This document shows positions 8,113 to 44,919 of a stretch of DNA of 64,000 nucleotides, in pieces. Within the stretch, counting starts at the first letter, position 1, and the number at the start of each line of letters is the position of its first letter. The translations under genes were made by a program, and so were the position numbers. The notes under the pieces are model-generated. The model worked only from the letters and a program-made list of their open reading frames with translations. It did no database searches and was not told the DNA's origin. Source of the stretch: Candidatus Aenigmatarchaeota archaeon (GTDB taxonomy: Archaea; Aenigmatarchaeota; Aenigmatarchaeia; QMZP01; QMZT01); assembly GCA_003663325.1 (NCBI GenBank), contig QMZT01000002.1:731-64730 (forward strand), read 5' to 3'.

Positions 8113-8658
8113 ATGAAAAATTTGCACATCTTTAAAATCTTAGAATTCTTTATAAGAAATCCTTACCAAAGGGTTTATCTTAGGGAGCTTGCCAAAAAGC
8201 TTAAATTGAGCCCATTCACCACTAAAAGGTATGTTGACGTGCTTGTTAGAGAAAAATTTATATATGAGGAAAGGGAAGCAAAGATGAGGTACTTTAAAGC
8301 CAATTTAAGTAATATTGCTTTTAGGTACATAAAGATAGCATACAGCCTGCATGAAATTTTAAAATCTGGGCTCATTAGTTTTTTATTAACCAACATTCCG
8401 AATATCTCATCTATAGTGCTTTTTGGATCTATTGCTAAGGGTGAGGATAGTGAAAAGAGTGATGTTGATTTACTTATTATCGGCAAGCCCAAATATATCA
8501 GGGTAGGAAAATTTGAAGAGAGATTAAAAAGGGATATAGCTCTACATATCTTTAGTTGGAGTGAATGGAATAAAAAAGCAAAGGAGGATAAAGCTTTTTA
8601 CTTAGAAATAATAAGGTATGGTGTACCAATCTATGGAGAATTACCAATGATAGAATGA
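8113..8658 (+). CDS. minimal nucleotidyltransferase (MNT) antitoxin-like protein with N-terminal winged HTH
   Basis: …IVLFGSIAKGEDSEKSDVDLLIIG… (GS…DxD Pol-beta NTase motif); N-terminal HTH; ATGA overlap with the HEPN gene. Confidence 0.7.
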   Translation: MKNLHIFKILEFFIRNPYQRVYLRELAKKLKLSPFTTKRYVDVLVREKFIYEEREAKMRYFKANLSNIAFRYIKIAYSLHEILKSGLISFLLTNIPNISSIVLFGSIAKGEDSEKSDVDLLIIGKPKYIRVGKFEERLKRDIALHIFSWSEWNKKAKEDKAFYLEIIRYGVPIYGELPMIE

Positions 8659-9098
8659 AGATCGAAACGCTTGAAGATTGTTTCAAATTTAGGCTTTTAC
8701 GTAAGATAAGGCCAGATATAGAAAAAAGCAAAAGATCTTTGGAAATAGCAAGGGAAAGGTTAAAAACGGCTAACACAGCTTACGATATTGCCCTGAAATT
8801 TAAATTTTTCAACTTTGTTATCATTGAGGCATATATGGCTATGTTCCATGCAGCCAGAGCCTTGCTCTATAAAGATGGCATTCAAGAAAAAAGTCATTTT
8901 GCAATGTATCTCTACTTAAAGGAAAGGTATAGCAGGAAGATCCCGTTCCATATAATAAATCTGCTAAATATTCATAGAATTGAAAGACATGAAACAATGT
9001 ATGGGTTAGAGTATCAGCCCACGAAGGAAGATGCTGAAATTGCTTTAAAGGATGCCAATATCTTTGTAAAAGAAGTCGAGAAGGTGCTCAAGAGGTAA
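8655..9098 (+). CDS. HEPN-domain protein (toxin partner of MNT)
   Basis: HEPN-like helical protein directly coupled to the MNT gene. Confidence 0.65.
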   Translation: MKIETLEDCFKFRLLRKIRPDIEKSKRSLEIARERLKTANTAYDIALKFKFFNFVIIEAYMAMFHAARALLYKDGIQEKSHFAMYLYLKERYSRKIPFHIINLLNIHRIERHETMYGLEYQPTKEDAEIALKDANIFVKEVEKVLKR

Positions 9099-9237: not shown

Positions 9238-9363
9238 GCGGCTGTAGTCTAGTCTGGTAGGACCCAGGCTTCCCGAGCCTGTGACCCGGGTTCAAAATCG
9301 AAACCACCAGCGGGTTTCGATGCATCCTGCAACCAACAAGCATGGGAAATCCCGGCAGCCGCA
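9238..9363 (+). tRNA. tRNA-Gly(CCC) with a 53-nt intron in the T-loop (position 59/60; intron 9297-9349)
   Basis: Acceptor GCGGCTG/CAGCCGC; anticodon stem CAGGC/GCCTG with loop TTCCCGA; T-stem CCGGG…CCCGG interrupted after TTCAAA. Removing 53 nt gives a 72-nt cloverleaf with T-loop TTCAAAT. Confidence 0.8.
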
Positions 9364-9429
9364 TTCTTTCTATGTGAAAAGGAATAAATTATCAAAAAAT
9401 AAAAATTTAATTGATAATAGTTTAGTTAA

Positions 9430-9556
9430 GCCTCGGTGGTGTAGCCTGGCTATCATACAGGACTGTCGATCCTGTGACCCGGGTTCAAAATCGAAACCAC
9501 CAGCGGGTTTCGATGCATCCTGCAACCAATAAGCATGGGAAATCCCGGCCGAGGCG
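9430..9556 (+). tRNA. tRNA-Asp(GTC) with a 53-nt T-loop intron (position 59/60; intron 9490-9542)
   Basis: Acceptor GCCTCGG/CCGAGGC; anticodon stem CAGGA/TCCTG with loop CTGTCGA. The variable loop, T-arm and intron are identical to tRNA-Gly except for one base. Confidence 0.8.
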
Positions 9557-14827: not shown

Positions 14828-16048
14828 ATGTTTGGCGTGATTGAGAAGGCAAAAAAAGTTATGGCAAGCTATTATCTTTGTGATAACTGCTTGGGAAGAC
14901 TATTCGCCCTTCTCCTCACAGGTATGAGCAACAGGGAGCGTGGTGCAGCAATAAGAAAAGTTATCGCTATGGAGTATGAGGCAAAGAGGTTCAAAATAAA
15001 GAGAGAGAATTTTTATGGGATAAAATTTAGAAAAAAGCGCACAAGCGTTAAAAAACCACAATGCTATGTGTGCAAAAACATATTTGATAGTATTGATAAG
15101 TATGTAGAGGATGCTCTTTCTATTTTAAAACCTTACCAATTCTCAACATTTCTTGTCGGGATAAAGATGTGTGATGAGATTGTGATGAGAGAGGAGCAGG
15201 TATTGAGGACTTGTGGCAAAAGTTACGCTGAGGATATAAAATCTGAGCTGAGTAGGGAAATCGGGAAAAGAATAGAGTTGAGGACTTCTAAAGCGTATGA
15301 TAAGGATATGCCAGATATTACTATAATATTTGATCTCGAACATAACAAGATAGAGCTTGATGTCAGATCAATTTTTATCTATGGTGAATACAGCAAGCTA
15401 GTAAGGGGTATTCCTCAAACAAAATGGGATAAGTATGAGGAGAGTGTAGAGGATATAATAGCAAAACCTTTTATTAAAGCATTAAAAGGAAAAGGGCATG
15501 TGTTTCATGCAGCTGGAAGGGAGGATATAGATGCAAGATGCCTTGCATACAGGCCGTTCGTGCTGGAAATAAAGGGTCCAAAGAAAAGAAGGGTTGATAT
15601 AGAGAGTATGGCAAAGGAGATAAACAAAAGCGGAAAGGTGCTTGTGAGGAATCTAAAGCTAACAGAAAGGAGCAAGGTAAGGGCTGTAAAGAAAATGGCA
15701 ATGGATAAAATCTATAGAGTTGTGGTTAGTTTTAGGGACAGGGTTAAGAATATTGCAAGTGTTAAAGGCATCTTAGGCATAGTTGAGCAAAGAACACCAA
15801 GAAGGGTGTTGCATAGGAGAAAAGATATAAAAAGATATAAAAAGATAAAAAGCATAAAATGGAAAAAGGTAAATGATAAAAAATATATATTTGAGATATG
15901 TGCGGAGAGCGGCACATATATAAAAGAATTAGTAAATGGTGATAACGGTAGAACAAAGCCAAGCATAGCATACCTTTTAAACAATCCAGCAAAGGTTGAA
16001 AGCCTTGATGTAATAGGGTTTGGTGAGAAAGATGGTAAGAAAGAATAA
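14828..16048 (+). CDS. pus10: tRNA pseudouridine(54/55) synthase Pus10
   Basis: N-terminal Zn motif …YYLCDNCLGRLFA…; catalytic-Asp region …GREDIDARCLAYRPFVLEIK… characteristic of Pus10. Confidence 0.75.
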   Translation: MFGVIEKAKKVMASYYLCDNCLGRLFALLLTGMSNRERGAAIRKVIAMEYEAKRFKIKRENFYGIKFRKKRTSVKKPQCYVCKNIFDSIDKYVEDALSILKPYQFSTFLVGIKMCDEIVMREEQVLRTCGKSYAEDIKSELSREIGKRIELRTSKAYDKDMPDITIIFDLEHNKIELDVRSIFIYGEYSKLVRGIPQTKWDKYEESVEDIIAKPFIKALKGKGHVFHAAGREDIDARCLAYRPFVLEIKGPKKRRVDIESMAKEINKSGKVLVRNLKLTERSKVRAVKKMAMDKIYRVVVSFRDRVKNIASVKGILGIVEQRTPRRVLHRRKDIKRYKKIKSIKWKKVNDKKYIFEICAESGTYIKELVNGDNGRTKPSIAYLLNNPAKVESLDVIGFGEKDGKKE

Positions 16049-17476: not shown

Positions 17477-17669
17477 GGGCCCGTAGCTCAGTCTGGTAGA
17501 GCACCGGACAGTTTGCTGGGTGATGCTTTTAACTCCCGTTAAAAGCGTGTTGAGCAAGGCAATGACAGGAAGACACCCGGGAGTCGCGGGTTCGAAGTAG
17601 AAAGTTTTAAAAACTTTTACAACTATATATAAGTTTAATCACAAAGAAGCGAAAATCCCGCCGGGCCCA
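17477..17669 (+). tRNA. tRNA (isotype unresolved) with two introns: about 60 nt in the anticodon region and 59 nt in the T-loop at 59/60 (17597-17655)
   Basis: Acceptor GGGCCCG/CGGGCCC, D-arm GCTC-AGTCTGGTA-GAGC, T-stem GCGGG…CCCGC interrupted after TTCGAA. Between CCGGA (17504-17508) and CCCGG (17576-17580) lie 67 nt, so an anticodon-region intron is present but the anticodon could not be read unambiguously. Confidence 0.6.
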
Positions 17670-32921: not shown

Positions 32922-34709
32922 GTGTTTAACATGAAAAAAAGAATAGTAGTTCTGGATAGAGATGCTTGTCAGTTTAACAAATGTAACTATGCATGTATGA
33001 AAGCATGCCCGATAAATAGAGCAGGAAAGGAATGTGTGCGTATTGGTGAAGATCGCTATCCGATTTTCAATGAAGAACTATGTATAGGTTGTGGTCTTTG
33101 TGTGAAGGCTTGTGAGAAAGCAAACTTCAACGCCATAACACTTGTTAATATACCAGAAGCGCTGAATGAAGACCCGGTGCATAGATACGGTACAAATGGG
33201 TTTTCTTTATACAGGCTCCCAATTCCGCAAAAAAATAAAGTAATAGGCATAATAGGGGCTAATGGTATAGGTAAGAGCACGATACTAAAGATACTCTCAG
33301 GTATTATAATGCCAAATCTTGGAAAAGAACGGGCTGAATGGAAAGAGATACTAAGAAGATTTAGAGGTAGTGAACTTCAATCGTATCTTGAAAAGCTTTC
33401 AAAGAAAGGGGTGAGAGTTGCGTATAAACCGCAAAATATAGACCTTATACCAAATGTATGGAAGAGGAAACGGGTTAGAGATTTGCTCAACAAGATTGGA
33501 GGTGATTATGAATATTTTATCAATACCTTTGGTATAAATGCTGTATTAAATAAAAATATATCTGAGCTTTCTGGTGGTGAGCTCCAGCTGGTTGCAATAG
33601 TAGCAACATTAATAAAGGATGCAGAACTTTATTTCTTTGATGAGCCGTCCAGCTATTTAGATGTTAAAAGCAGGTTGCTTGTTGCTAAGGAGATACGAAA
33701 ACTTAGCAAGAGGAGTATGGTTATGGTTGTTGAGCACGACCTTGCCATTCTTGATTATCTGAGTGATGGCATACATATTATATATGGAAAGCCCGGAGCA
33801 TTCGGAATAGTATCACATCCCTATGGCGTTGGTACAGGCATAAATACATACTTGCATGGCTATATTAAGGATGAGAATGTTAGAATCAGGGAAAAGCCAA
33901 TAGTATTTTCTGATGTTGCGAAAAGCGCTGGCAGCTTTAAAAAATATTTTGAGTTCCCACAGTTAGAGAAGCATTTTGAGAATTTTTCTTTGATTGCAGA
34001 GGGAGGGAGCATAAATAGAGGTGAAATAATAGGCATACTTGGACCTAATGGGACGGGTAAAACAACGTTTATAAAGATGCTTGCAGGAATAATAAAGCCG
34101 GATAAAGGGGTCATTAAGAGCGAGCTAAAAATTTCATTCAAGCCCCAACGTCTTGTTCTTAATGCCAAAGATGCCAGTAAAAGCGTTAAGGAATATCTTT
34201 ATGAAAAACTTAAAGACAGGGCATATGATACAGAGTTTAAAAGAATACTAAGAGCGCTTTCAATCGAAAGGAATTTAGAGAAAGATGTATCGTTCCTATC
34301 TGGCGGTGAATTGCAAAGTCTATTCATAGCAGAGAGTATTGGCAAGGAGCACGATATACTATTCTTGGATGAACCTTCAGCATTTCTAGATGTCGATCAA
34401 AGATTGTATATGGCAAAGATTGTGAGGGATCATATAAAGAGAAATGGTAAGGCATGTTTTATCGTTGATCATGATTTACAGGTAATAGATGCGATGTCTG
34501 ATAGAATAATACTCTTTGAAGGTGTTCCAGGTGTCAGAGGCCATGCTCATGCCAAGCTCACGCTTCAAGAAGGTATGAACCTATTTCTTAAAGGGCTTGG
34601 TATTACATTTAGAAGAGATAAAATAACGAAAAGGCCGAGAGCAAATAAAGAAGGAAGCATCAAAGATCGAGAGCAAAAGAAATCAGGAAACTATTACTAT
34701 ACAAAATAA
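32922..34709 (+). CDS. abcE1: ABCE1 / RNase L inhibitor ribosome-recycling ATPase
   Basis: N-terminal 2x[4Fe-4S] Cys clusters (…CNYACMKACP…CIGCGLCVKAC…) followed by two ABC ATPase domains (GANGIGKST / GPNGTGKTT). Confidence 0.9.
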   Translation: MFNMKKRIVVLDRDACQFNKCNYACMKACPINRAGKECVRIGEDRYPIFNEELCIGCGLCVKACEKANFNAITLVNIPEALNEDPVHRYGTNGFSLYRLPIPQKNKVIGIIGANGIGKSTILKILSGIIMPNLGKERAEWKEILRRFRGSELQSYLEKLSKKGVRVAYKPQNIDLIPNVWKRKRVRDLLNKIGGDYEYFINTFGINAVLNKNISELSGGELQLVAIVATLIKDAELYFFDEPSSYLDVKSRLLVAKEIRKLSKRSMVMVVEHDLAILDYLSDGIHIIYGKPGAFGIVSHPYGVGTGINTYLHGYIKDENVRIREKPIVFSDVAKSAGSFKKYFEFPQLEKHFENFSLIAEGGSINRGEIIGILGPNGTGKTTFIKMLAGIIKPDKGVIKSELKISFKPQRLVLNAKDASKSVKEYLYEKLKDRAYDTEFKRILRALSIERNLEKDVSFLSGGELQSLFIAESIGKEHDILFLDEPSAFLDVDQRLYMAKIVRDHIKRNGKACFIVDHDLQVIDAMSDRIILFEGVPGVRGHAHAKLTLQEGMNLFLKGLGITFRRDKITKRPRANKEGSIKDREQKKSGNYYYTK

Positions 34710-37476: not shown

Positions 37477-37992
37477 ATGATAACTGTGATAGTATTTTTA
37501 TTTTCAATCTTGATGTATCTTTTATTGACCATTGGCTCAGGGGATATTATTTTTTGGAGCTATGAAGAGTTAGCATGCGGAATTTTTATTTCCATTTTAG
37601 CAACATTAATCGCAAAGAAGCTACTTTCCATGATAAGCTTTGAGTTATCCAAATCGAAATCGAGTATGGTAAGCTTAAAAAGAGCTTGCCTGTTTATTGT
37701 TTATCTTCTTGGTCCATTCTTCTTCAATATGGCAAAAGCTAATATTATTCTTGCATACAGGGTTATAACTAATAAAATAGAGCCTGCTATTGTAAAAATA
37801 TCCCCACAACTGAAAACAAATTTTGGCATAGCTATGCTCTCAAATTTTATTACTCTTACCCCCGGTACACTTTCCCTTGCTATTGATGAAGAAAAGAATA
37901 TCTATGTTCACTGGATATATATGAAACATAAGGAACCAAAGCTATATGAAATCTTTTCATCACCAAAATTGATAAGGAAGGTGTTAATATGA
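37477..37992 (+). CDS. mbhA: membrane-bound hydrogenase subunit MbhA (MnhE-like)
   Basis: First gene of a 14-gene overlapping operon. Size and hydrophobicity match Mrp subunit E / P. furiosus MbhA. GGAGGT 22 nt upstream of the ATG. Confidence 0.7.
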   Translation: MITVIVFLFSILMYLLLTIGSGDIIFWSYEELACGIFISILATLIAKKLLSMISFELSKSKSSMVSLKRACLFIVYLLGPFFFNMAKANIILAYRVITNKIEPAIVKISPQLKTNFGIAMLSNFITLTPGTLSLAIDEEKNIYVHWIYMKHKEPKLYEIFSSPKLIRKVLI

Positions 37993-38243
37993 TACTCTAT
38001 TTGATAATATCGATCATCTTAAGTATCTTGGCTCTGTTATGTTGGCTTAAAGTTATTATAAGCCGTACTATAGTGGATAAAATGGTAGCGTTGGACGCTG
38101 CAAACACCATAGTTATTTCATTCTTGATATTGCTCGGTGCTATTTTTAAAGAAATTGTCTATGTTGATGTAGCGATTGTTTATGCAATGCTTAGCTTCGT
38201 ATCTATAATTTATATCTCAAGATATTTGGAGGGTTGTAAATGA
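37989..38243 (+). CDS. mbhB: MbhB (MnhF-like)
   Basis: 84-aa two-TM protein; overlaps neighbours by 4 nt. Confidence 0.65.
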   Translation: MILYLIISIILSILALLCWLKVIISRTIVDKMVALDAANTIVISFLILLGAIFKEIVYVDVAIVYAMLSFVSIIYISRYLEGCK

Positions 38244-38578
38244 TAACAGCTGTTGCTTTCCTATGCGCCGGTATTTTTTTCCAAACAATAGGGGTTATTG
38301 CATTGTATAGATTTCCAGATGTGTACACAAGGATTCATGGGACTACGATGTGTACAACGCTTGGCTCGATTCTATTTTATATAGGCATTAGTATGTATGC
38401 ATTTTTTTCTTTTAATGAAAATTGGCTTGCCTTTACCTCACATATATTTATAACCTTGATCTTACTTTTAATAACAGCTCCAACTGGGTCGCATGCCATA
38501 GCCAGGGCTGCTTATAAAAGTGGTATAAAACCAAAAGTGGTTTTTGATAAACTGAGGGATGCAAAATGTTCGAAATAA
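38240..38578 (+). CDS. mbhC: MbhC (MnhG-like)
   Basis: 112-aa three-TM protein. Confidence 0.65.
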   Translation: MITAVAFLCAGIFFQTIGVIALYRFPDVYTRIHGTTMCTTLGSILFYIGISMYAFFSFNENWLAFTSHIFITLILLLITAPTGSHAIARAAYKSGIKPKVVFDKLRDAKCSK

Positions 38579-38817
38579 TAGAGATGATCATACTGCTGGG
38601 GGTGATATGCACTAGCGTGGCTGCAATGCTTTCAAAAGATCTTTTAGTATCGGTTGTATTGCTGGCTGCTATGAGTTTATTACTTTCTTTGGAATTTTAT
38701 ATCTTGCATGCCCCTGATGTAGCTATAGCTGAGGCTGCAATTGGCGCAGGTTTATCCACTGCCATATACATCATGGCTATAAATAAAACGGATAGGTGGG
38801 AAAATGAAAATGGCTAG
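38566..38817 (+). CDS. mbhD: MbhD (Mrp-like small membrane subunit)
   Basis: 83-aa membrane protein in the conserved position. Confidence 0.6.
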
Positions 38818-39082
38818 GGTTGTAACTTTAGCTCTGTTTTTTGTATTCCTCCTGATAACATCACTTGCTATGCGCCCTTTTGGAAAGCCAAGCAATACTG
38901 GAATGGATGATTACTTTATCCAAAATGGCCAAGCCCAAACAGGAAGCAATAACATCGTAACCTCTGTTGTTTTTGATTATAGAGGCATGGATACCCTTGG
39001 TGAAGCCACAGTACTTTTTGCTGCTGCAAGTGGGGTCTTGCTTATATTCCAAAGAGCAGTGACAGGTGGTAAGCATGAATGA
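38804..39082 (+). CDS. mbhE: MbhE (Mrp-like small membrane subunit)
   Basis: 92-aa membrane protein in the conserved position. Confidence 0.6.
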
Positions 39083-39533
39083 TGTGTCCTTAATAGTAAA
39101 GGTGGTAGCGTATATCCTTATTGTTCCCGTATTTATCTTTGGATCCTACGTCATATTGCATGGTCATCTAAGCCCGGGTGGTGGATTTGCAGGTGGAGCT
39201 ATCTTGGCAACACTTGTTGCGATGCTTGTTATTACATTTAGGGATGATTTTAAAGAAAACCCGCATGAGATCTTTTCTATTTTAGAATGCATCGGCATGA
39301 TCTTTTTTATCCTCCTTGCTTTTTTTGGTCTTTCATCATCATTTTTCCATAATTTCCTTGTTAATCTTAATGGTTTATTTGGCAAGCCTGTGCATTTTGG
39401 TGTAAATCCCGGATATCTAAATACTGCTGGCGTGATCCCTTTAATGAATATGGCTGTAGGTATAGAGGTATTTTCAGCATTGTCTTTGATAGTATTGATG
39501 CTTAGTATGAGGTATGGTGGTGAGAGAAAATGA
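39066..39533 (+). CDS. mbhF: MbhF (MnhB-like)
   Basis: 155-aa four-TM protein. Confidence 0.6.
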
Positions 39534-39877
39534 TAGATATACAATTCCTAACAGTGGTTATTCTCATAAGCGTAGGCATTTCTACGCTTGTCTTTAAAAA
39601 AAATATAATAAAAATAGTAATGGGTATCGAGATTATCTCTAGCTCAATAAACCTTTTCCTCATATCTCTTGGCTATAGAGAAGGTAGCGTAGCCCCCATC
39701 TTTACAAATGCACCAAGCGTTAAAATGGTCCTTCCAACGCCACAAGCATTGACATTAACAAATATTGTTATAGATCTTGCCATTACGGCATTAATGCTTT
39801 CGCTTGCCGTTTTAATCTACAATTACTATGGAACGTTAAGTATGAAGAAATGGAGGTTGGTAGAGAGATGTTCATAA
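39530..39877 (+). CDS. mbhG: MbhG (MnhC/NuoK-like)
   Basis: 115-aa three-TM protein. Confidence 0.65.
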   Translation: MIDIQFLTVVILISVGISTLVFKKNIIKIVMGIEIISSSINLFLISLGYREGSVAPIFTNAPSVKMVLPTPQALTLTNIVIDLAITALMLSLAVLIYNYYGTLSMKKWRLVERCS

Positions 39878-41415
39878 TAGAACATTTGCCTGCCTTGGTA
39901 ATAGCAATCCCTCTATTGGCAGCCTTCATAGCGCCATTACTCAAAAGGTTTGGCAAGCATGCCGTGTCTGTATGGAGCATACTCAACCTTTCAATAGTGG
40001 AATGCTTGGTTATAGTCCTTGGTTATAGGGTAATAAAAGATGGTATTCAAAGCTATGCAATAGGTGCATCAATCCCCTCATTATTATCACCAAATGGTTT
40101 GCCTGTTAGAATCATACTGGAGGTAGATGCCATCTCCTCTTTTATGGGCTTAACCTCAATATCCATTATTTTACTTGCATGTATCTATTCTGCATGCTTT
40201 ATGAAAAAGTATAAAAGCGTTGAAAGATACTATTCACTTCTGCTCTTAATGGCAGCAGGCATTATGGGTATGGCCTTTACAGGGGATATGTTTAACATGT
40301 TCGTTTTTCTTGAAGTTCTATCCATCTCATCCGCTGGATTAATAGCCTTCTATGCTTATAAAGGTGAAGCTATAGAAGCTGCGTTCAAATATCTTGTTAT
40401 TAGTTCAATCTCCGCATTGATGGTTTTATTTGCTATCGCCCTTCTCTATGGGCAATATGGGCTTTTGAATATAGCTGCTTTAGGTGCTGCCTTTAGATTT
40501 ACAATTCTCGATAAGATAGCATTAGCTTTGTTAGTCTCTGCGTTTGTCATGAAATGTGGAGCTGTACCATTGCATATGTGGGTAGCCGATGCGTATGGAG
40601 AAGCACCCGCACCCATATCTGCAAGTCTCGTTGTTGCTAGTCAAATAAGCCTTTACGCTCTTTTCCGAATCTGCTTTACGCTTTTTGGACTACTGCCAGC
40701 GATACAAATCATAGCATGGTTCATAATATTGTTTGGTCTTGCCTCTATGTTCGTTGGCGTCACAATGGCAATGCCACAGAAGGATATAAAAAGGCTTATG
40801 GCATACCATGCCATTTCTCAGACAGGATATATGCTGCTTGGTGTTGGTGTTGGATTGGCTGTGATAAATGATATTAATGCGCTGAATGCTTTTGGTATAG
40901 CAGCTATGGAGGGCGGAATTTTCCATATTATAAATCATGCAATGTATAAAGGTTTGCTGTTTTTGGTTGCAGGTGCAATCATTTATAGAACGGGCACGAA
41001 AAATTTGAATGAAATGGGCGGTCTTGGTAACAGGATGCCTATTACAGCTGTACTTTTTTTAATAGGGATGCTTTCTATTACTGGTCTCCCACCATTTAAT
41101 GGCTTTGCATCAAAGCTTATAATATATGAATCGGTCTTTCTCTTTAACCCCATACTTTCTGTTGTAGCAATGATAGTAAGTATTTTAACCTTGGCATCAT
41201 TCGTAAAGGTTTTCTATTCAGCATTCACTGGCCAAGAGCAATCAAAATATAAAGATGTTAAGGAAATACCTGCTATTATGTTAGTGCCCTTGCTTATATT
41301 AGCTTTCCTTATAATCTTGTTCGGTTTATTTCCGGGTATCATTCTAAAATTACTTGTAAAGCCTGCCGTTCAAGCTTTATTAGACAGGGCAGGTTATATA
41401 GGGGTTGTGGTATGA
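39850..41415 (+). CDS. mbhH: MbhH (MnhD/NuoL-like antiporter-type subunit)
   Basis: 521-aa, about 14 TM, NuoL/M/N proton-pumping family. Confidence 0.8.
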   Translation: MEVGREMFIIEHLPALVIAIPLLAAFIAPLLKRFGKHAVSVWSILNLSIVECLVIVLGYRVIKDGIQSYAIGASIPSLLSPNGLPVRIILEVDAISSFMGLTSISIILLACIYSACFMKKYKSVERYYSLLLLMAAGIMGMAFTGDMFNMFVFLEVLSISSAGLIAFYAYKGEAIEAAFKYLVISSISALMVLFAIALLYGQYGLLNIAALGAAFRFTILDKIALALLVSAFVMKCGAVPLHMWVADAYGEAPAPISASLVVASQISLYALFRICFTLFGLLPAIQIIAWFIILFGLASMFVGVTMAMPQKDIKRLMAYHAISQTGYMLLGVGVGLAVINDINALNAFGIAAMEGGIFHIINHAMYKGLLFLVAGAIIYRTGTKNLNEMGGLGNRMPITAVLFLIGMLSITGLPPFNGFASKLIIYESVFLFNPILSVVAMIVSILTLASFVKVFYSAFTGQEQSKYKDVKEIPAIMLVPLLILAFLIILFGLFPGIILKLLVKPAVQALLDRAGYIGVVV

Positions 41416-41759
41416 TGATGACAACGCTCAGCACTATCAGGGGTTTTTGGGATCCAGTATTATGGATGGCGGCATTTATAATTGTAATAGTAATTACATG
41501 CTATATCCGATCACTAGGAAAGGAGGAATATAAGAGAGGTACAGAGCAAACTATGGTATTCTTTTCTGGAAACATACCCCCAAAAGAGTTGATAAGCTCT
41601 AGCAATATTTATTGGGGGTTTTTTAAAGCAATGGAAAAATATTATACATGCATAAGAAGATTTCATACGGGTATGGTAAATGATTATGTCTATTATTTTA
41701 TCGTTATAGTTATCGTGATTATAGCAAGCTTGATAATCGGAGGGGTATTATGGATGTAA
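41412..41759 (+). CDS. mbhI: MbhI (small membrane subunit specific to Mbh-type complexes)
   Basis: 115-aa two-TM protein between mbhH and mbhJ. Confidence 0.6.
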   Translation: MMMTTLSTIRGFWDPVLWMAAFIIVIVITCYIRSLGKEEYKRGTEQTMVFFSGNIPPKELISSSNIYWGFFKAMEKYYTCIRRFHTGMVNDYVYYFIVIVIVIIASLIIGGVLWM

Positions 41760-42181
41760 AAGCCTTCAATAGGTCTTTATGGGTATTCCACGTTAACACA
41801 GGTTCGTGTAATGGTTGCGATATAGAGATTATAGCAGCTTTGACTCCAAGATATGATGTGGAGCGATTTGGTATAAAGCTTGTAGGAACACCCAGGCATG
41901 CGGATGTTTTGTTGGTAACAGGACCTGTAACAAGAGAAATGGCAAAAAAACTTAAAAGGATATATGATCAGGTTCCAGATCCCAAAGCCGTAATGGTGGT
42001 TGGAAATTGTGGTTCAACAGGCGGTGTTTTCTATGAGTCCTACAACCTTGTTGGACCTGTAGATAAAATAATACCTGTCGATGTTTACGTTCCTGGTTGC
42101 CCACCAAGACCAGAAGCAATTATCCAAGGCGTGATAAAACTTTGGGAGAAATTGGAAGATAAGAGGCGAGGAAAATGTTAA
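41750..42181 (+). CDS. mbhJ: MbhJ, [NiFe]-hydrogenase small subunit (NuoB-like, proximal 4Fe-4S cluster)
   Basis: Cluster Cys ligands: …GSCNGCDIEII…, …GNCGSTGG…, …PGCPPRPE…. Confidence 0.85.
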   Translation: MDVKAFNRSLWVFHVNTGSCNGCDIEIIAALTPRYDVERFGIKLVGTPRHADVLLVTGPVTREMAKKLKRIYDQVPDPKAVMVVGNCGSTGGVFYESYNLVGPVDKIIPVDVYVPGCPPRPEAIIQGVIKLWEKLEDKRRGKC

Positions 42182-42681
42182 AAGATATTTTAGATTCATT
42201 TAAAAGAGAGCTTGGAGAAAAGATTATAGAAGCGAGGATCGAGGAAAAGGTAAAGGGAGAAAAAAGGTTATGGCTGGTGGTTAGGAAGGATTCATTTAAG
42301 CGTGTCGTAAAGCATTTATTTTTAGCATATCCAAATACACGTTTTGCTGTTGCTTCTGGTTATGATGCAGACACTCATATAACGCTGATTTATCATTTCT
42401 TTGTCAGCTTAGAGGGTAAAGCAGGAGATGCATCCGTAAATATAAAGGTCGATGTACCGAAAAACAATCCTGTGCTGCCTACTATTACAGATATTGTTCC
42501 AGGCGCGTTAATATCTGAGAGGGAATTGCAAGAAATGCTTGGTGTAAAGATTAAAGATATCCCTGATCCAAGACGTATATTTTTATCAAACGATTTTCCA
42601 AAAGGCATATATCCGTGGAGAAGGGATGAATACGGCCCAGAAAGGATTGTTAGAGATTTGCATAGAGGTGATAAAGAATGA
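42175..42681 (+). CDS. mbhK: MbhK (NuoC-like)
   Basis: 168-aa NuoC/HycE-N-domain-like protein between the small and large subunits. Confidence 0.75.
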   Translation: MLKDILDSFKRELGEKIIEARIEEKVKGEKRLWLVVRKDSFKRVVKHLFLAYPNTRFAVASGYDADTHITLIYHFFVSLEGKAGDASVNIKVDVPKNNPVLPTITDIVPGALISERELQEMLGVKIKDIPDPRRIFLSNDFPKGIYPWRRDEYGPERIVRDLHRGDKE

Positions 42682-43931
42682 AAAAAATAGCTGACACTGG
42701 CAATGAGCAAAATTCGTTCACATTTTGTGTAGGCCCGGTTCATCCCGCCCTTAAAGAACCGTTGCAATTCACTTTTAAAATAGAAGGGGAAAGGGTTAAA
42801 AAAGTAGACTTTATGCTTAGTCACGTACATAGAGGAATAGAATGGATGGGGACAAGGCGCAACCCAATACAAATTATTTATCTTGCAGAAAGGATATGTG
42901 GAATATGTAACATATCGCATCCATTTGCGTTCTGTAGAGCAGTAGAAAGCGTGGCAGGAATAGAAGTACCACCCAGAGCAGAGTATATAAGGACCATCAA
43001 CGCTGAGCTTGAGAGGATACATTCTCATTTACTATGGGCTGGTATTGCAGCACATGAATTGGGATTTGACTCGGTATTGCATTATATATTAAAGGCAAGG
43101 GAAAGGGTTCTTGATATTATTGAATACATCACAGGAAACAGGATAACCAAAGGTATCATGATGATCGGTGGTGTGAGAAGGGATATTTCAAAAAAACAGT
43201 ATAGAAAAATAATAGAGGCCATGGAGTATTATAAAAAGCAGGTCAAGAAAATAAGCGATATTCTTTTAAAGGATCATGTTGTAAAGGCTAGAACAATAAA
43301 TACTGGGATTCTAAGTAAAGCAGATGCTATAAAATTATGCGCTGTGGGTCCAACAGCAAGGGCAAGTGGTGTTAAAAGAGATGTGAGGCAGGATGAGCCA
43401 TACGCCGCGTATAAGTACTTAGATGTGGAGGCAATAACACCAGCAACCATAGGAAAAGAAACAAGAGGGGACGTATATGATAGAACATTGGTAAGGCTTG
43501 CAGAAATAAGGCAATCTGTTAATATAATCGTTGAATGTTTAAAGAGCATGCCCGAAGGAAAAATAGCATATGAAGATAAAATACCAAAACTTTTAGCTGA
43601 ACTAAAAAGCGTTGAAGGTGAAGGTATAGGTAGACATGAAGCGCCACGTGGAGAGGTTTTGCATTACATTAAGCTAATTGGAAATGAGACCTTATTCTCG
43701 TGGAAGGTTAGAGCCCCAACCTATGCCAATTTACTTTCATGGGTTCCGATGCTCTTAGGTGCGCAGATAGCTGACATACCAATCATAGCGGCATCAACCG
43801 ATCCATGTTTATCATGCACCAACAGAGCTGTTATTACAAAGCATGGCAAGCATGTTGTTATTGATCATGAAGCCTTGCATGAGCTTTCGGTTAAAAAAAC
43901 CTTGGCATTGAGAAAGGTGAAGCATGATTGA
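42678..43931 (+). CDS. mbhL: MbhL, group-4 [NiFe]-hydrogenase large subunit (NuoD-like)
   Basis: N-terminal Ni-Fe motif …ERICGICNISH… (RxCGxCxxxH) and C-terminal …DPCLSCTNR (DPCxxCxxR, as in E. coli HycE). Confidence 0.85.
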   Translation: MKKIADTGNEQNSFTFCVGPVHPALKEPLQFTFKIEGERVKKVDFMLSHVHRGIEWMGTRRNPIQIIYLAERICGICNISHPFAFCRAVESVAGIEVPPRAEYIRTINAELERIHSHLLWAGIAAHELGFDSVLHYILKARERVLDIIEYITGNRITKGIMMIGGVRRDISKKQYRKIIEAMEYYKKQVKKISDILLKDHVVKARTINTGILSKADAIKLCAVGPTARASGVKRDVRQDEPYAAYKYLDVEAITPATIGKETRGDVYDRTLVRLAEIRQSVNIIVECLKSMPEGKIAYEDKIPKLLAELKSVEGEGIGRHEAPRGEVLHYIKLIGNETLFSWKVRAPTYANLLSWVPMLLGAQIADIPIIAASTDPCLSCTNRAVITKHGKHVVIDHEALHELSVKKTLALRKVKHD

Positions 43932-44919
43932 GATCGTGTACAAGATCGGCATGGTGCCTGTAATTGCTGTGTTAGGCATTGTTTTAGGTTTGCTTTACAA
44001 TGGTATTGATAGGAAGCTGGCTGCAAGGATGCAATCCAGGGTTGGACCACCTATAATTCAGCCCTTTATAGATATAAAAAAATTGCTAATGAAAGAGAGC
44101 ATAGTGCCAAGGCATGCGATAAAATGGCTTTTTAATCTAATGCCTGTATTGGCTCTTTCTGCTTCCCTATTAACCTTGTTGTATATACCGTTCTGTGGCA
44201 TTGGGCCTGCTTTTGAAGGCTACGGAGACCTTGTACTTGTCCTATACCTGCTTGTTTTACCGCCATTAGCTATAACCCTCGGGGCTTTTGCCTCTGGCTC
44301 ACACTATGCTACAATTGGGGCACAAAGAGAAATGGTAACCATGATAAGTTACGAATTACCCCTAGCCATAGCCATTGTTTCTGTGGCATGGCTACTTTCC
44401 ATGGCAAATCCATCCTTACCTGTATTTTCCTTAAGTGTAATCTCAAACAACCCTATTTGGAACTTTACCACCCCGCTTAGTTTTCTCGGCCTGCTTATAA
44501 TATTCATAGCTTTGCTTCTAGTTATACCAGGTGAGCTTGGAAAGACACCGTTTGATGTTGCGGAAGCTGAAACAGAGATTGCAGAAGGTGTGTTTGCGGA
44601 ATACTCTGGAAGGAATCTTGCCCTCTTTTATTTGGCAAATGCCGTAAGAACCATAGCCATAGCATCCCTTATCATAGCTATATTCCTACCTTGGAATCTT
44701 TCTACCTTCTTTAATTTCTCATACTTAAGCCTGTTATTTGATGCACTCTTTTTCTTAATAAAATTATTTGTAATTATCTTCATAAGCTCGGTATTTATCA
44801 GGGTTATTGTGCCCAGGCTAAGGATAACCCAAGTAGTTTCCACATATTGGTTTTATACCACTCTAATAGCATTGCTTGGGATGTTATTAATATGGATTGG
44901 CTGTTGTTTAAAGGGGTGA
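43924..44919 (+). CDS. mbhM: MbhM (NuoH-like membrane subunit)
   Basis: 331-aa eight-TM NuoH/HycD-like protein. Confidence 0.8.
   Translation: MIEIVYKIGMVPVIAVLGIVLGLLYNGIDRKLAARMQSRVGPPIIQPFIDIKKLLMKESIVPRHAIKWLFNLMPVLALSASLLTLLYIPFCGIGPAFEGYGDLVLVLYLLVLPPLAITLGAFASGSHYATIGAQREMVTMISYELPLAIAIVSVAWLLSMANPSLPVFSLSVISNNPIWNFTTPLSFLGLLIIFIALLLVIPGELGKTPFDVAEAETEIAEGVFAEYSGRNLALFYLANAVRTIAIASLIIAIFLPWNLSTFFNFSYLSLLFDALFFLIKLFVIIFISSVFIRVIVPRLRITQVVSTYWFYTTLIALLGMLLIWIGCCLKG

Follow-up and report, generated by a model that had tools for sequence, protein, structure and literature searches.

A short palindromic DNA element as the probable source of a T-loop intron in two tRNA genes of an aenigmatarchaeote

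Introduction

How did two neighbouring tRNA genes come to carry the same 53-nucleotide (nt) insert in the T-loop, and is that insert an intron? The question is raised by tRNA-Gly(CCC) and tRNA-Asp(GTC) in a 64,000-nt stretch of archaeal DNA (assembly GCA_003663325.1, contig QMZT01000002.1, positions 731 to 64,730 of the forward strand; hereafter the window), which is part of the ENA metagenome contig ERZ27227322:k141_258059 (91,198 bp). From comparative sequence analysis and predicted RNA structure we conclude that T-loop inserts of this kind are probably introns removed by a splicing endonuclease, the Gly/Asp intron having originated from a short mobile DNA element that we name family A.

Proteins of the contig are filed at NCBI (RLJ00352.1 and HDD45854.1 are from this organism) under Candidatus Aenigmarchaeota or Aenigmatarchaeota bins, placing the host among the DPANN archaea, and a G+C content of about 37%, a split rpoB, an archaeal signal recognition particle RNA and the 23S rRNA fit this placement. 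An earlier note on this DNA had presented the host, ‘unlike Thermoproteales’, as an oddity for T-loop introns. There is no paradox once the contig is recognized as DPANN: 59/60 is a listed non-canonical tRNA intron position (PMC4090602), and PMC5829648 describes heavily disrupted tRNA genes in DPANN archaea together with splicing endonucleases carrying an insert that its authors associate with broad specificity.

The interrupted tRNA genes

tRNA coordinates were obtained by direct reading of the sequence and by a custom scan for acceptor stem, D arm and T arm in which the length of the T-loop was left free. tRNA-Gly(CCC) (9238-9363, forward strand) has a 5′ exon (9238-9296), a 53-nt insert (9297-9349) and a 3′ exon (9350-9363), so that its T-loop reads TTCAAA, insert, T. 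tRNA-Asp(GTC) (9430-9556, same strand) lies 66 nt further on and is arranged alike (5′ exon, 9430-9489; 53-nt insert, 9490-9542; 3′ exon, 9543-9556). Gly 9278-9356 and Asp 9471-9549 form a shared 79-nt block made up of the end of the anticodon stem, the variable loop, the T arm and the insert, with a sole difference at insert position 41 (C at 9337 in Gly, T at 9530 in Asp); the 5′ two-thirds of the two genes are unrelated. Both halves of this description, the near-identity and the unrelated remainder, had been given in the earlier note and are borne out here. The same tRNA-Gly gene with the same insert is present in an independent assembly from another sample (L066), so the insert is not an assembly artefact.

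The custom scan identified four tRNA genes in the window and no further credible one. The other two, tRNA-Lys and the tRNA-Ala of the 16S-23S spacer, have T-loop inserts at the same site (17597-17655 and 63909-63978, respectively), unrelated in sequence to that of Gly and Asp, and the earlier count of four T-loop introns in four tRNA genes in 64 kb thus stands, coordinates included. A fifth tRNA gene of the contig, tRNA-Ala(CGC) (L004, 18588-18474), lies some 8 kb upstream of the window start. Its T-loop is normal and its intron lies at 37/38, the canonical site; T-loop introns in this genome are therefore frequent but not universal.

Standard tools overlook these genes. ARAGORN run on the raw window returned one wrong 73-nt Gly call and none of the four tRNAs correctly, and an Rfam search of the raw 64-kb window at the gathering threshold returned no tRNA. 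Unspliced Gly and Asp score 22.1 and 19.5 bits with the Rfam tRNA model against a gathering score of 29 bits, in alignments that use false, mismatched 3′ arms built from intron sequence. Once the inserts are taken out, all four genes are called by ARAGORN as normal tRNAs of 72-74 nt: Gly(ccc) (73 nt without the 53 nt), Asp(gtc), Lys(ttt) (74 nt without its three introns) and Ala(tgc). This agrees with the statement of the earlier note that Gly and Asp form cloverleaves only without the 53-nt block.

Evidence for splicing

In the archaeal bulge-helix-bulge motif, cleavage follows the second nt of each 3-nt bulge and the bulges lie 4 bp apart. This geometry agrees with the 30/31 intron of tRNA-Lys in the window, which has the strict motif: central helix CACC/GGUG, bulges GG↓A and AU↓G (arrows, cleavage sites) and outer helix CAG/CUG. 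A second strict bulge-helix-bulge intron of the same genome lies in the 23S rRNA gene (62608-62541).

For the Gly/Asp insert, a run of A allows the junction to be placed anywhere from 56/57 to 59/60 by sequence alone, and a bulge-helix motif arises only with 59/60. A junction at 59/60 predicts that T-loop nt 54-57 pair with intron nt n-5 to n-2, with the T-stem abutting the 3′ bulge, and that the 5′ bulge consists of nt 58-59 plus the first intron nt. This prediction was compared with nine T-loop inserts that are independent of one another, four being intron sequences of this lineage and five coming from other DPANN contigs; 33 of 36 central-helix positions are paired, a number reached in 0 of 20,000 draws of random 4-mers from the same introns. 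The 5′ bulge is AA↓N in all nine and the 3′ bulge AA↓U in eight and AC↓U in one. Every insert ends in NNNN-AA, the NNNN pairing with T-loop nt 54-57 beside the T-stem, and both junctions are thereby held in 3-nt bulges separated by a helix of ~4 bp, the relaxed form of the motif for which the earlier note had advised looking. The inserts tested are unrelated in sequence (two intron families, A and B, described below, the Lys intron and two Ser introns), so the common bulge-helix design is not inherited identity. The Lys 59/60 intron has four of four central pairs (UUCG/CGAA). In Gly and Asp, UUCA faces GGGA (intron nt 48-51) with three of four central pairs and bulges AA↓A and AA↓U, the GGGA-AA at the end of the Gly intron tail pairing with T-loop nt 54-56. 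Minimum-energy folds of the T arms give T-stem, short helix and hairpin, and whole Gly and Asp precursors (z = -3.7 and -3.6) fold better than 200 of 200 shuffles.

An empty site is provided by tRNA-Asp(GTC) of another aenigmatarchaeote, L061 (GCA_021158665.1, 1085-1322), which reads ...GACCCGGGTTCAAATCCCGGC... with no T-loop insert and has a 165-nt intron in the anticodon loop. Together with the cloverleaves restored by removal and the shared bulge geometry, this upholds the reading of the inserts as 59/60 introns made in the earlier note.

Several observations weigh against splicing. Homotetrameric and homodimeric endonucleases of narrow specificity accept as substrate only the strict hBHBh′ motif, which the T-loop introns lack: no helix closes opposite the 5′ bulge, no 3′ sequence pairing with intron nt 2 onward, and 22 unpaired nt separate the family-A hairpin from the central helix. 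Their motif is therefore relaxed, not strict. The central helix of Gly and Asp contains an A57·G mismatch, and neither a splicing endonuclease nor an RtcB ligase gene was found in the 64 kb or in those parts of the 91-kb contig that were read.

That T-loop inserts are protein-spliced, non-canonical 59/60 introns is well supported computationally; cleavage and ligation, which we infer, would proceed as follows. The T-stem of the precursor would form normally, and T-loop nt 54-57 would pair with the four intron nt before the final two As. This would place the 3′ junction in a 3-nt bulge, A-A↓U60, and the 5′ junction in the bulge A58-A59↓A, between the short helix and the hairpin of 8-9 bp with which the intron begins. 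A DPANN-type splicing endonuclease of relaxed specificity would cut after the second nt of each bulge, and an RtcB-type ligase would join the exons to give UUCAAAU. The predicted spliced junctions are CCTGTGACCCGGGTTCAAATCCCGGCAGCCGCA for Gly and ...GGGTTCAAATCCCGGCCGAGGCG for Asp, and a circularised intron would join GCATGGGAAA to ATCGAAACC.

Spread of the intron among tRNA genes

The T arm of the two genes, CCGGGTTCAAATCCCGG, is also found without a T-loop intron in the tRNA-Asp of L061 and in a tRNA-Gly(GCC) (L011), both from other Aenigmatarchaeota. Identity of the Gly and Asp exons is therefore ancestral and does not need gene conversion. A JGI contig whose composition is similar (L039, L040) also has the 53-nt intron itself, in its tRNA-Arg(GCG) and tRNA-Glu(UUC) genes, both copies being the Asp version and 100% identical over 75 nt. 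These comparisons indicate that the intron has spread among tRNA genes sharing the CCGGGTTCAAATCCCGG T arm, by a route that could be insertion or recombination across short identical flanks. No orthologous Gly/Asp loci were retrieved by way of the neighbouring Na+/H+ antiporter gene, which is horizontally scattered and does not keep synteny.

The earlier note had ascribed the match between Gly and Asp to transposition of the intron or to conversion of the 3′ half of one gene by the other. Its first alternative is strengthened by the Arg and Glu copies. Conversion of the entire 3′ half, comprising variable loop, T arm and intron, would account for identity extending 19 nt upstream and 7 nt downstream of the insert, between genes 66 nt apart whose shared flanks would supply homology for recombination. 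However, the same T arm occurs without the intron in L061 and L011, and in the Arg and Glu genes identity begins only at (T)GACCCGGG, making conversion an unlikely cause of the match. It also overlaps with spread of the intron, for which recombination across identical flanks is one possible route.

Family A in tRNA genes and at protein-gene starts

The first 38 nt of the Gly/Asp intron (9297-9334 in Gly, with the hairpin at 9297-9321 and an intron tail at 9335-9349; 9490-9527 in Asp) constitute the family-A core, ATCGAAACC-N7-GGTTTCGAT-GCATCCTGCAACC, and the Gly core matches the family-A profile at E = 1e-14. Genome bins and JGI metagenome contigs were scanned with an exact pattern of the hairpin and a few following bases, yielding 25 distinct copies that share ATCGAAACC-N7-GGTTTCGAT-GCATCC(A/T)GC(A/G)ACC. 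As only exact stems could be matched, the conserved stem reflects ascertainment; conservation of loop and tail is informative. Copies occur in bins labelled Aenigmatarchaeota and Pacearchaeota and in JGI metagenome contigs. Pattern matches in DNA of high G+C content were set aside, as they look unrelated and lack the ATCC tail; matches in viral contigs are those same contigs.

Within tRNA genes, family A is found at two intron positions. At 59/60 it occupies seven genes, in the orientation of the tRNA, among them Gly(CCC), Asp, Arg(GCG), Glu, Arg(UCG) and an unassigned tRNA (L014). In the same orientation it occurs at 37/38 in tRNA-Gly(GCC) of two genomes, tRNA-Thr(CGU) and tRNA-Trp, whose long intron has it at the 5′ end. 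Eight of nine distinct same-orientation tRNA introns have the first hairpin nt at intron nt 2, the place where the outer helix of the motif belongs. In reverse orientation family A lies in the 37/38 intron of tRNA-Ile(GAU) in four genomes, and there the 3′ arm of the hairpin pairs over 8-12 bp with the variable 5′ end of the intron, a pairing kept across the differing sequences of all four. Similar introns in different tRNAs and at different positions, the mark of transposed intron clusters, are thus seen for family A, as they are for family B.

Family A was also found at thirteen places outside tRNA genes. Eleven of these are associated with protein genes, and in 11 of 11 the hairpin end faces the gene. 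The start codon follows 1-2 nt past the hairpin in eight, which puts a GGAGGT 7-8 nt upstream of the ATG. The genes concerned, which encode uS4, an L41e-like peptide, a 2-hydroxyacid dehydrogenase, membrane proteins and an S-layer-like protein, have no relationship to one another. The copy at L016, between two protein genes, is identical to the window core at 38 of 38 positions, and the bin containing it also has family A in a tRNA-Gly(GCC) intron (L015).

Some copies are repeated or displaced. Tandem heptamers, (C)TGGATG, repeat the element tail three to six times beside the hairpin at L013 and L021, upstream in gene orientation, and L028 and L030 contain two or three tandem copies of the whole element. 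At L009 (1254-1560) a copy lies ~50 nt downstream of a tRNA gene with a long intron in the anticodon region and is followed by GTTCGACT, an exact 8-nt match to the T-loop of that tRNA (shuffle p = 0.009); this arrangement may be the remnant of a T-loop insertion or a rearrangement.

Other identities considered for family A were rejected. No boxes of a C/D-box RNA and no CRISPR arrays were seen, the integron attC consensus does not fit, and ends of IS200/IS605 elements do not agree, since these make no target duplication and one hairpin is too little. As a peptide-coding unit family A would be inconsistent relative to neighbouring genes, frames 1, 2 and 3 each being used at different loci. An endonuclease-spliced mRNA intron found no support at L038, where neither exon-exon nor exon-intron complementarity surrounds the copy, and a pseudoknot of loop and tail was dropped, since the tail and loop position 1, which co-vary as A/T, could form only 2 bp and their co-variation looks like subfamily structure.

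Evidence for mobility

Direct repeats and empty sites accompany family A at protein genes. The stop codon of uS13 and the start codon of uS4 normally overlap (AAATGATAAG...). At L030 this junction reads AAATGATAA, insert, ATGATAAGG, whereas L062, a relative with 68% identical uS4, has the uninterrupted AAATGATAAGAAAAAAG, and in comparison with this empty site the insert is flanked by ATGATAA on both sides. L038 has a homologous 63-nt form flanked at the same boundaries by ATGAAAA, a 7-nt repeat. L016 and L048 are syntenic (carbamoyltransferase, small HypC-like protein, 174-aa protein, EamA transporter) and have the element at different points ~20 nt apart, each being empty at the site of the other. 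Both insertions are in frame and 45 nt long (38 + 7), a length that would also fit a 7-nt repeat; one lengthens the upstream protein at its C-terminus, and the other adds to the N-terminus of the protein downstream. The core is free of stops in all six frames in 21 of 25 variants, a weak indication, as stops are also absent from 3.6% of shuffles and from 14% of random hairpins built alike, and as all copies are related. The repeats at tRNA T-loops measure 9-11 nt and are imperfect; the intron resembles at its 3′ end an imperfect copy of the 5′ exon end, as in AGGATTCGAAAA versus AGGGTTCGAAT at L014; TTCGAA is palindromic, so that duplication and complementarity are indistinguishable there.

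A different, ~100-nt insert flanked by a 19-nt direct repeat, AAAATGATAAGAAAAAAGA, lies at the same uS13/uS4 junction as that of L030 in a Pacearchaeota-like contig (L064, 1-200), and these genomes may be generally prone to insertions that duplicate the starts of genes.

Weighing against mobility, family A has no terminal inverted repeats: the 63-nt form begins with CGCAAAAAAC... and ends with ...GGTTTCGACT, neither being the inverted copy of the other, and the one inverted repeat present is the internal hairpin. No transposase was seen linked to the copies, the length of the flanking repeats varies (6-12 nt), a longest-repeat shuffle test of the flanks is not significant for individual loci, and copy number is low, at one or two exact copies per genome in these scans.

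As for how family A moves, we infer the following. A palindromic DNA element of 38-47 nt would be the source of the Gly/Asp intron, having spread as DNA between tRNA genes with the ancestral CCGGGTTCAAATCCCGG T arm in common, as well as to other tRNA positions and to protein-gene starts, in Aenigmatarchaeota and Pacearchaeota. On a more tentative reading, when the element lands in a tRNA gene the hairpin may supply the outer helix and the duplicated, part-palindromic flank (TTCGAA, TTGCAA) the central helix, making the insertion spliceable at once or after a few changes, and at a start codon the element's own GGAGGT may keep the gene translated.

Alternatively, family A could be a functional RNA hairpin, such as a protein-binding site or Shine-Dalgarno leader, maintained by selection and recruited as the outer helix of introns. 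The single orientation of all 11 protein-gene copies, the GGAGGT 7-8 nt before the start codon in eight, a stem that as RNA reads alike in both orientations, and the position of the hairpin exactly at intron nt 2 in tRNA introns would all suit such a role. Selection for a hairpin is harder to reconcile with unoccupied orthologous sites and flanking direct repeats, with the in-frame insertions within coding sequence at L016 and L048, with the presence of both orientations within tRNA genes, and with the unrelated nature of the genes preceded, from uS4 and the L41e-like peptide to the dehydrogenase and membrane proteins, and we regard this origin as improbable. Function and mobility are compatible, however, as a mobile element can persist by supplying a ribosome-binding site or a splicing helix.

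It is very unlikely that the interrupted genes are dead, hit by a repeat element that stays unspliced and replaced by intron-free copies elsewhere in the genome: family A does insert into non-tRNA DNA and the Gly/Asp motif is imperfect (three of four central pairs), but all four window tRNAs are affected, including the tRNA-Ala of the rRNA operon, tRNA-Asp(GUC) is the only isoacceptor for Asp, the exons are preserved base for base, and unrelated inserts keep one bulge-helix geometry, as expected only under selection for splicing; in addition, duplicate tRNA genes are rare in the small genomes of DPANN archaea.

Family B and other features of the contig

tRNA-Lys(UUU) (17477-17669, forward strand; manual parse) contains three introns: 17508-17524 (30/31, 17 nt), 17532-17574 (37/38, 43 nt) and the T-loop intron at 17597-17655 (59/60, 59 nt). 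The spacer tRNA-Ala(UGC) (63895-64000, reverse strand) is cut by the window end, with its 3′ exon at 63895-63908, a 70-nt family-B intron at 63909-63978 and the start of the 5′ exon at 63979-64000; the full gene is found at L002 5932-6073.

The T-loop intron of this tRNA-Ala matches the family-B profile and is homologous to both tRNA-Trp introns of L039 and to four mini-introns of the same rRNA operon, two each in the 23S and 16S rRNA genes. The motif is clear in the 23S mini-intron at 62608-62541 (reverse strand, 68 nt), where the central helix is CUUU/GAGG and the outer helix spans 11 bp; the 23S mini-intron at about 61087-61013 (reverse strand, 75 nt) has GCAG/CUGU and an irregular outer exon helix. 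The two 16S mini-introns, also family B, lie beyond the window end (L002 4644-4706 and 5091-5154), bringing the operon to five related mini-introns (16S ×2, tRNA-Ala, 23S ×2). The 23S rRNA gene (60628-63748) spans 3121 nt against 2987 nt for the Rfam model, the two mini-introns accounting for the excess. The stable RNA genes of this genome are thus colonised by at least two intron families.

The 37/38 intron of tRNA-Lys (17532-17574) contains GCTTTTAACTCCCGTTAAAAGC, the reverse complement of which resembles the family-B motif TTTACGGGAGCTAA, and this family-B-like motif is present in both orientations in the third intron of the L015 tRNA-Gly(GCC); family B may therefore occur in either orientation.

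Pus10, the tRNA pseudouridine-54/55 synthase that modifies the T-loop, is encoded at 14828-16048, 5 kb from T-loop-intron genes, and its substrate site is present only once T-loop introns are spliced. Directly upstream of the tRNA-Gly/Asp pair (8113-9098) lies a nucleotidyltransferase (MNT) and HEPN gene pair resembling a toxin-antitoxin module. A cluster of Mrp-antiporter-like and membrane-bound [NiFe]-hydrogenase or complex-I-like subunits (37477-44919; MnhE, MnhB, Proton_antipo_M, 20-kDa, 30-kDa, 49-kDa and NADHdh) is unexpected in a reduced DPANN genome. A look-up of the open reading frame at 32922-34709 returned no record.

Discussion

Non-canonical archaeal tRNA introns with relaxed motifs were reportedly described by Marck and Grosjean in 2003 and by Sugahara in 2008. 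The T-loop introns resemble the hBH and HBh′ introns (PMC4090602) in being, by our reading, protein-spliced and in lying outside 37/38, at a position listed for that group, and also in having splice sites in 3-nt bulges beside a 4-bp helix and several introns per tRNA. They differ in their host, an AT-rich DPANN archaeon and not a crenarchaeote, in the presence of a 59/60 intron in every tRNA gene of 64 kb, and in an outer helix that is a free-standing hairpin joined through a long single strand.

Transposed intron clusters of Thermoproteales are likewise thought to have spread at the DNA level, a transposition inferred without a mechanism and without reported copies outside RNA genes (PMC4090602). 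In contrast, the family-A core is also found at protein-gene starts, with direct repeats and empty sites, in both orientations and in two DPANN phyla. Disrupted tRNA genes of DPANN archaea and their L3-loop endonucleases (PMC5829648; ARMAN-2 enzyme, PMC3239211) provide the same lineage setting with many non-canonical introns; the consulted parts of these papers do not describe T-loop introns of Aenigmatarchaeota or a shared intron element. In Candidatus Caldiarchaeum, integration of a mobile genetic element has been proposed to cause tRNA intron gain (PMC3293823); that element is 1.8 kb and encodes a recombinase, and the intron is a by-product and not the element itself. The 59/60 position, intron-rich DPANN tRNA genes and intron families shared between tRNA genes are all already known. 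Literature searches did not find the Gly/Asp intron described as a member of a cross-phylum palindromic element, or family A described as introns at two tRNA positions, in both orientations, and at protein-gene starts; a search for the family-A sequence as a literal string returned nothing.

In introner elements of eukaryotes, a duplicated target flank contributes to the splice signal. These transposon-derived spliceosomal introns are, like family A as proposed here, small non-autonomous DNA elements that multiply and become introns on insertion (PMC11282704). Family A would differ in relying on a protein endonuclease and RNA structure instead of the spliceosome and in having tRNA and rRNA genes as hosts; it is only about 40 nt long and seems to be present in few copies per genome. 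We tentatively suggest that introner elements may have an archaeal counterpart in family A, as a ~40-nt palindromic DNA element that would move within and between DPANN genomes. Rickettsia palindromic elements, which are bacterial and 100-150 bp long, are short palindromic repeats tolerated in frame in protein genes and present also in RNA genes. The family-A core is likewise poor in stops. Rickettsia palindromic elements have no sequence relationship to family A and are not known to act as introns.

Some of the ‘missing tRNAs’ of DPANN bins may be genes with T-loop introns that standard finders overlook. An intron copied from a small hairpin DNA element, as in Gly and Asp, suggests a way in which archaeal tRNA genes may gain introns. 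If the introner-like reading is true, it would offer a concrete mechanism for the gain of non-canonical tRNA introns, described as unknown (PMC4090602), and a defined short element with repeats and empty sites makes the question of intron gain in archaeal tRNA genes, especially outside 37/38, testable.

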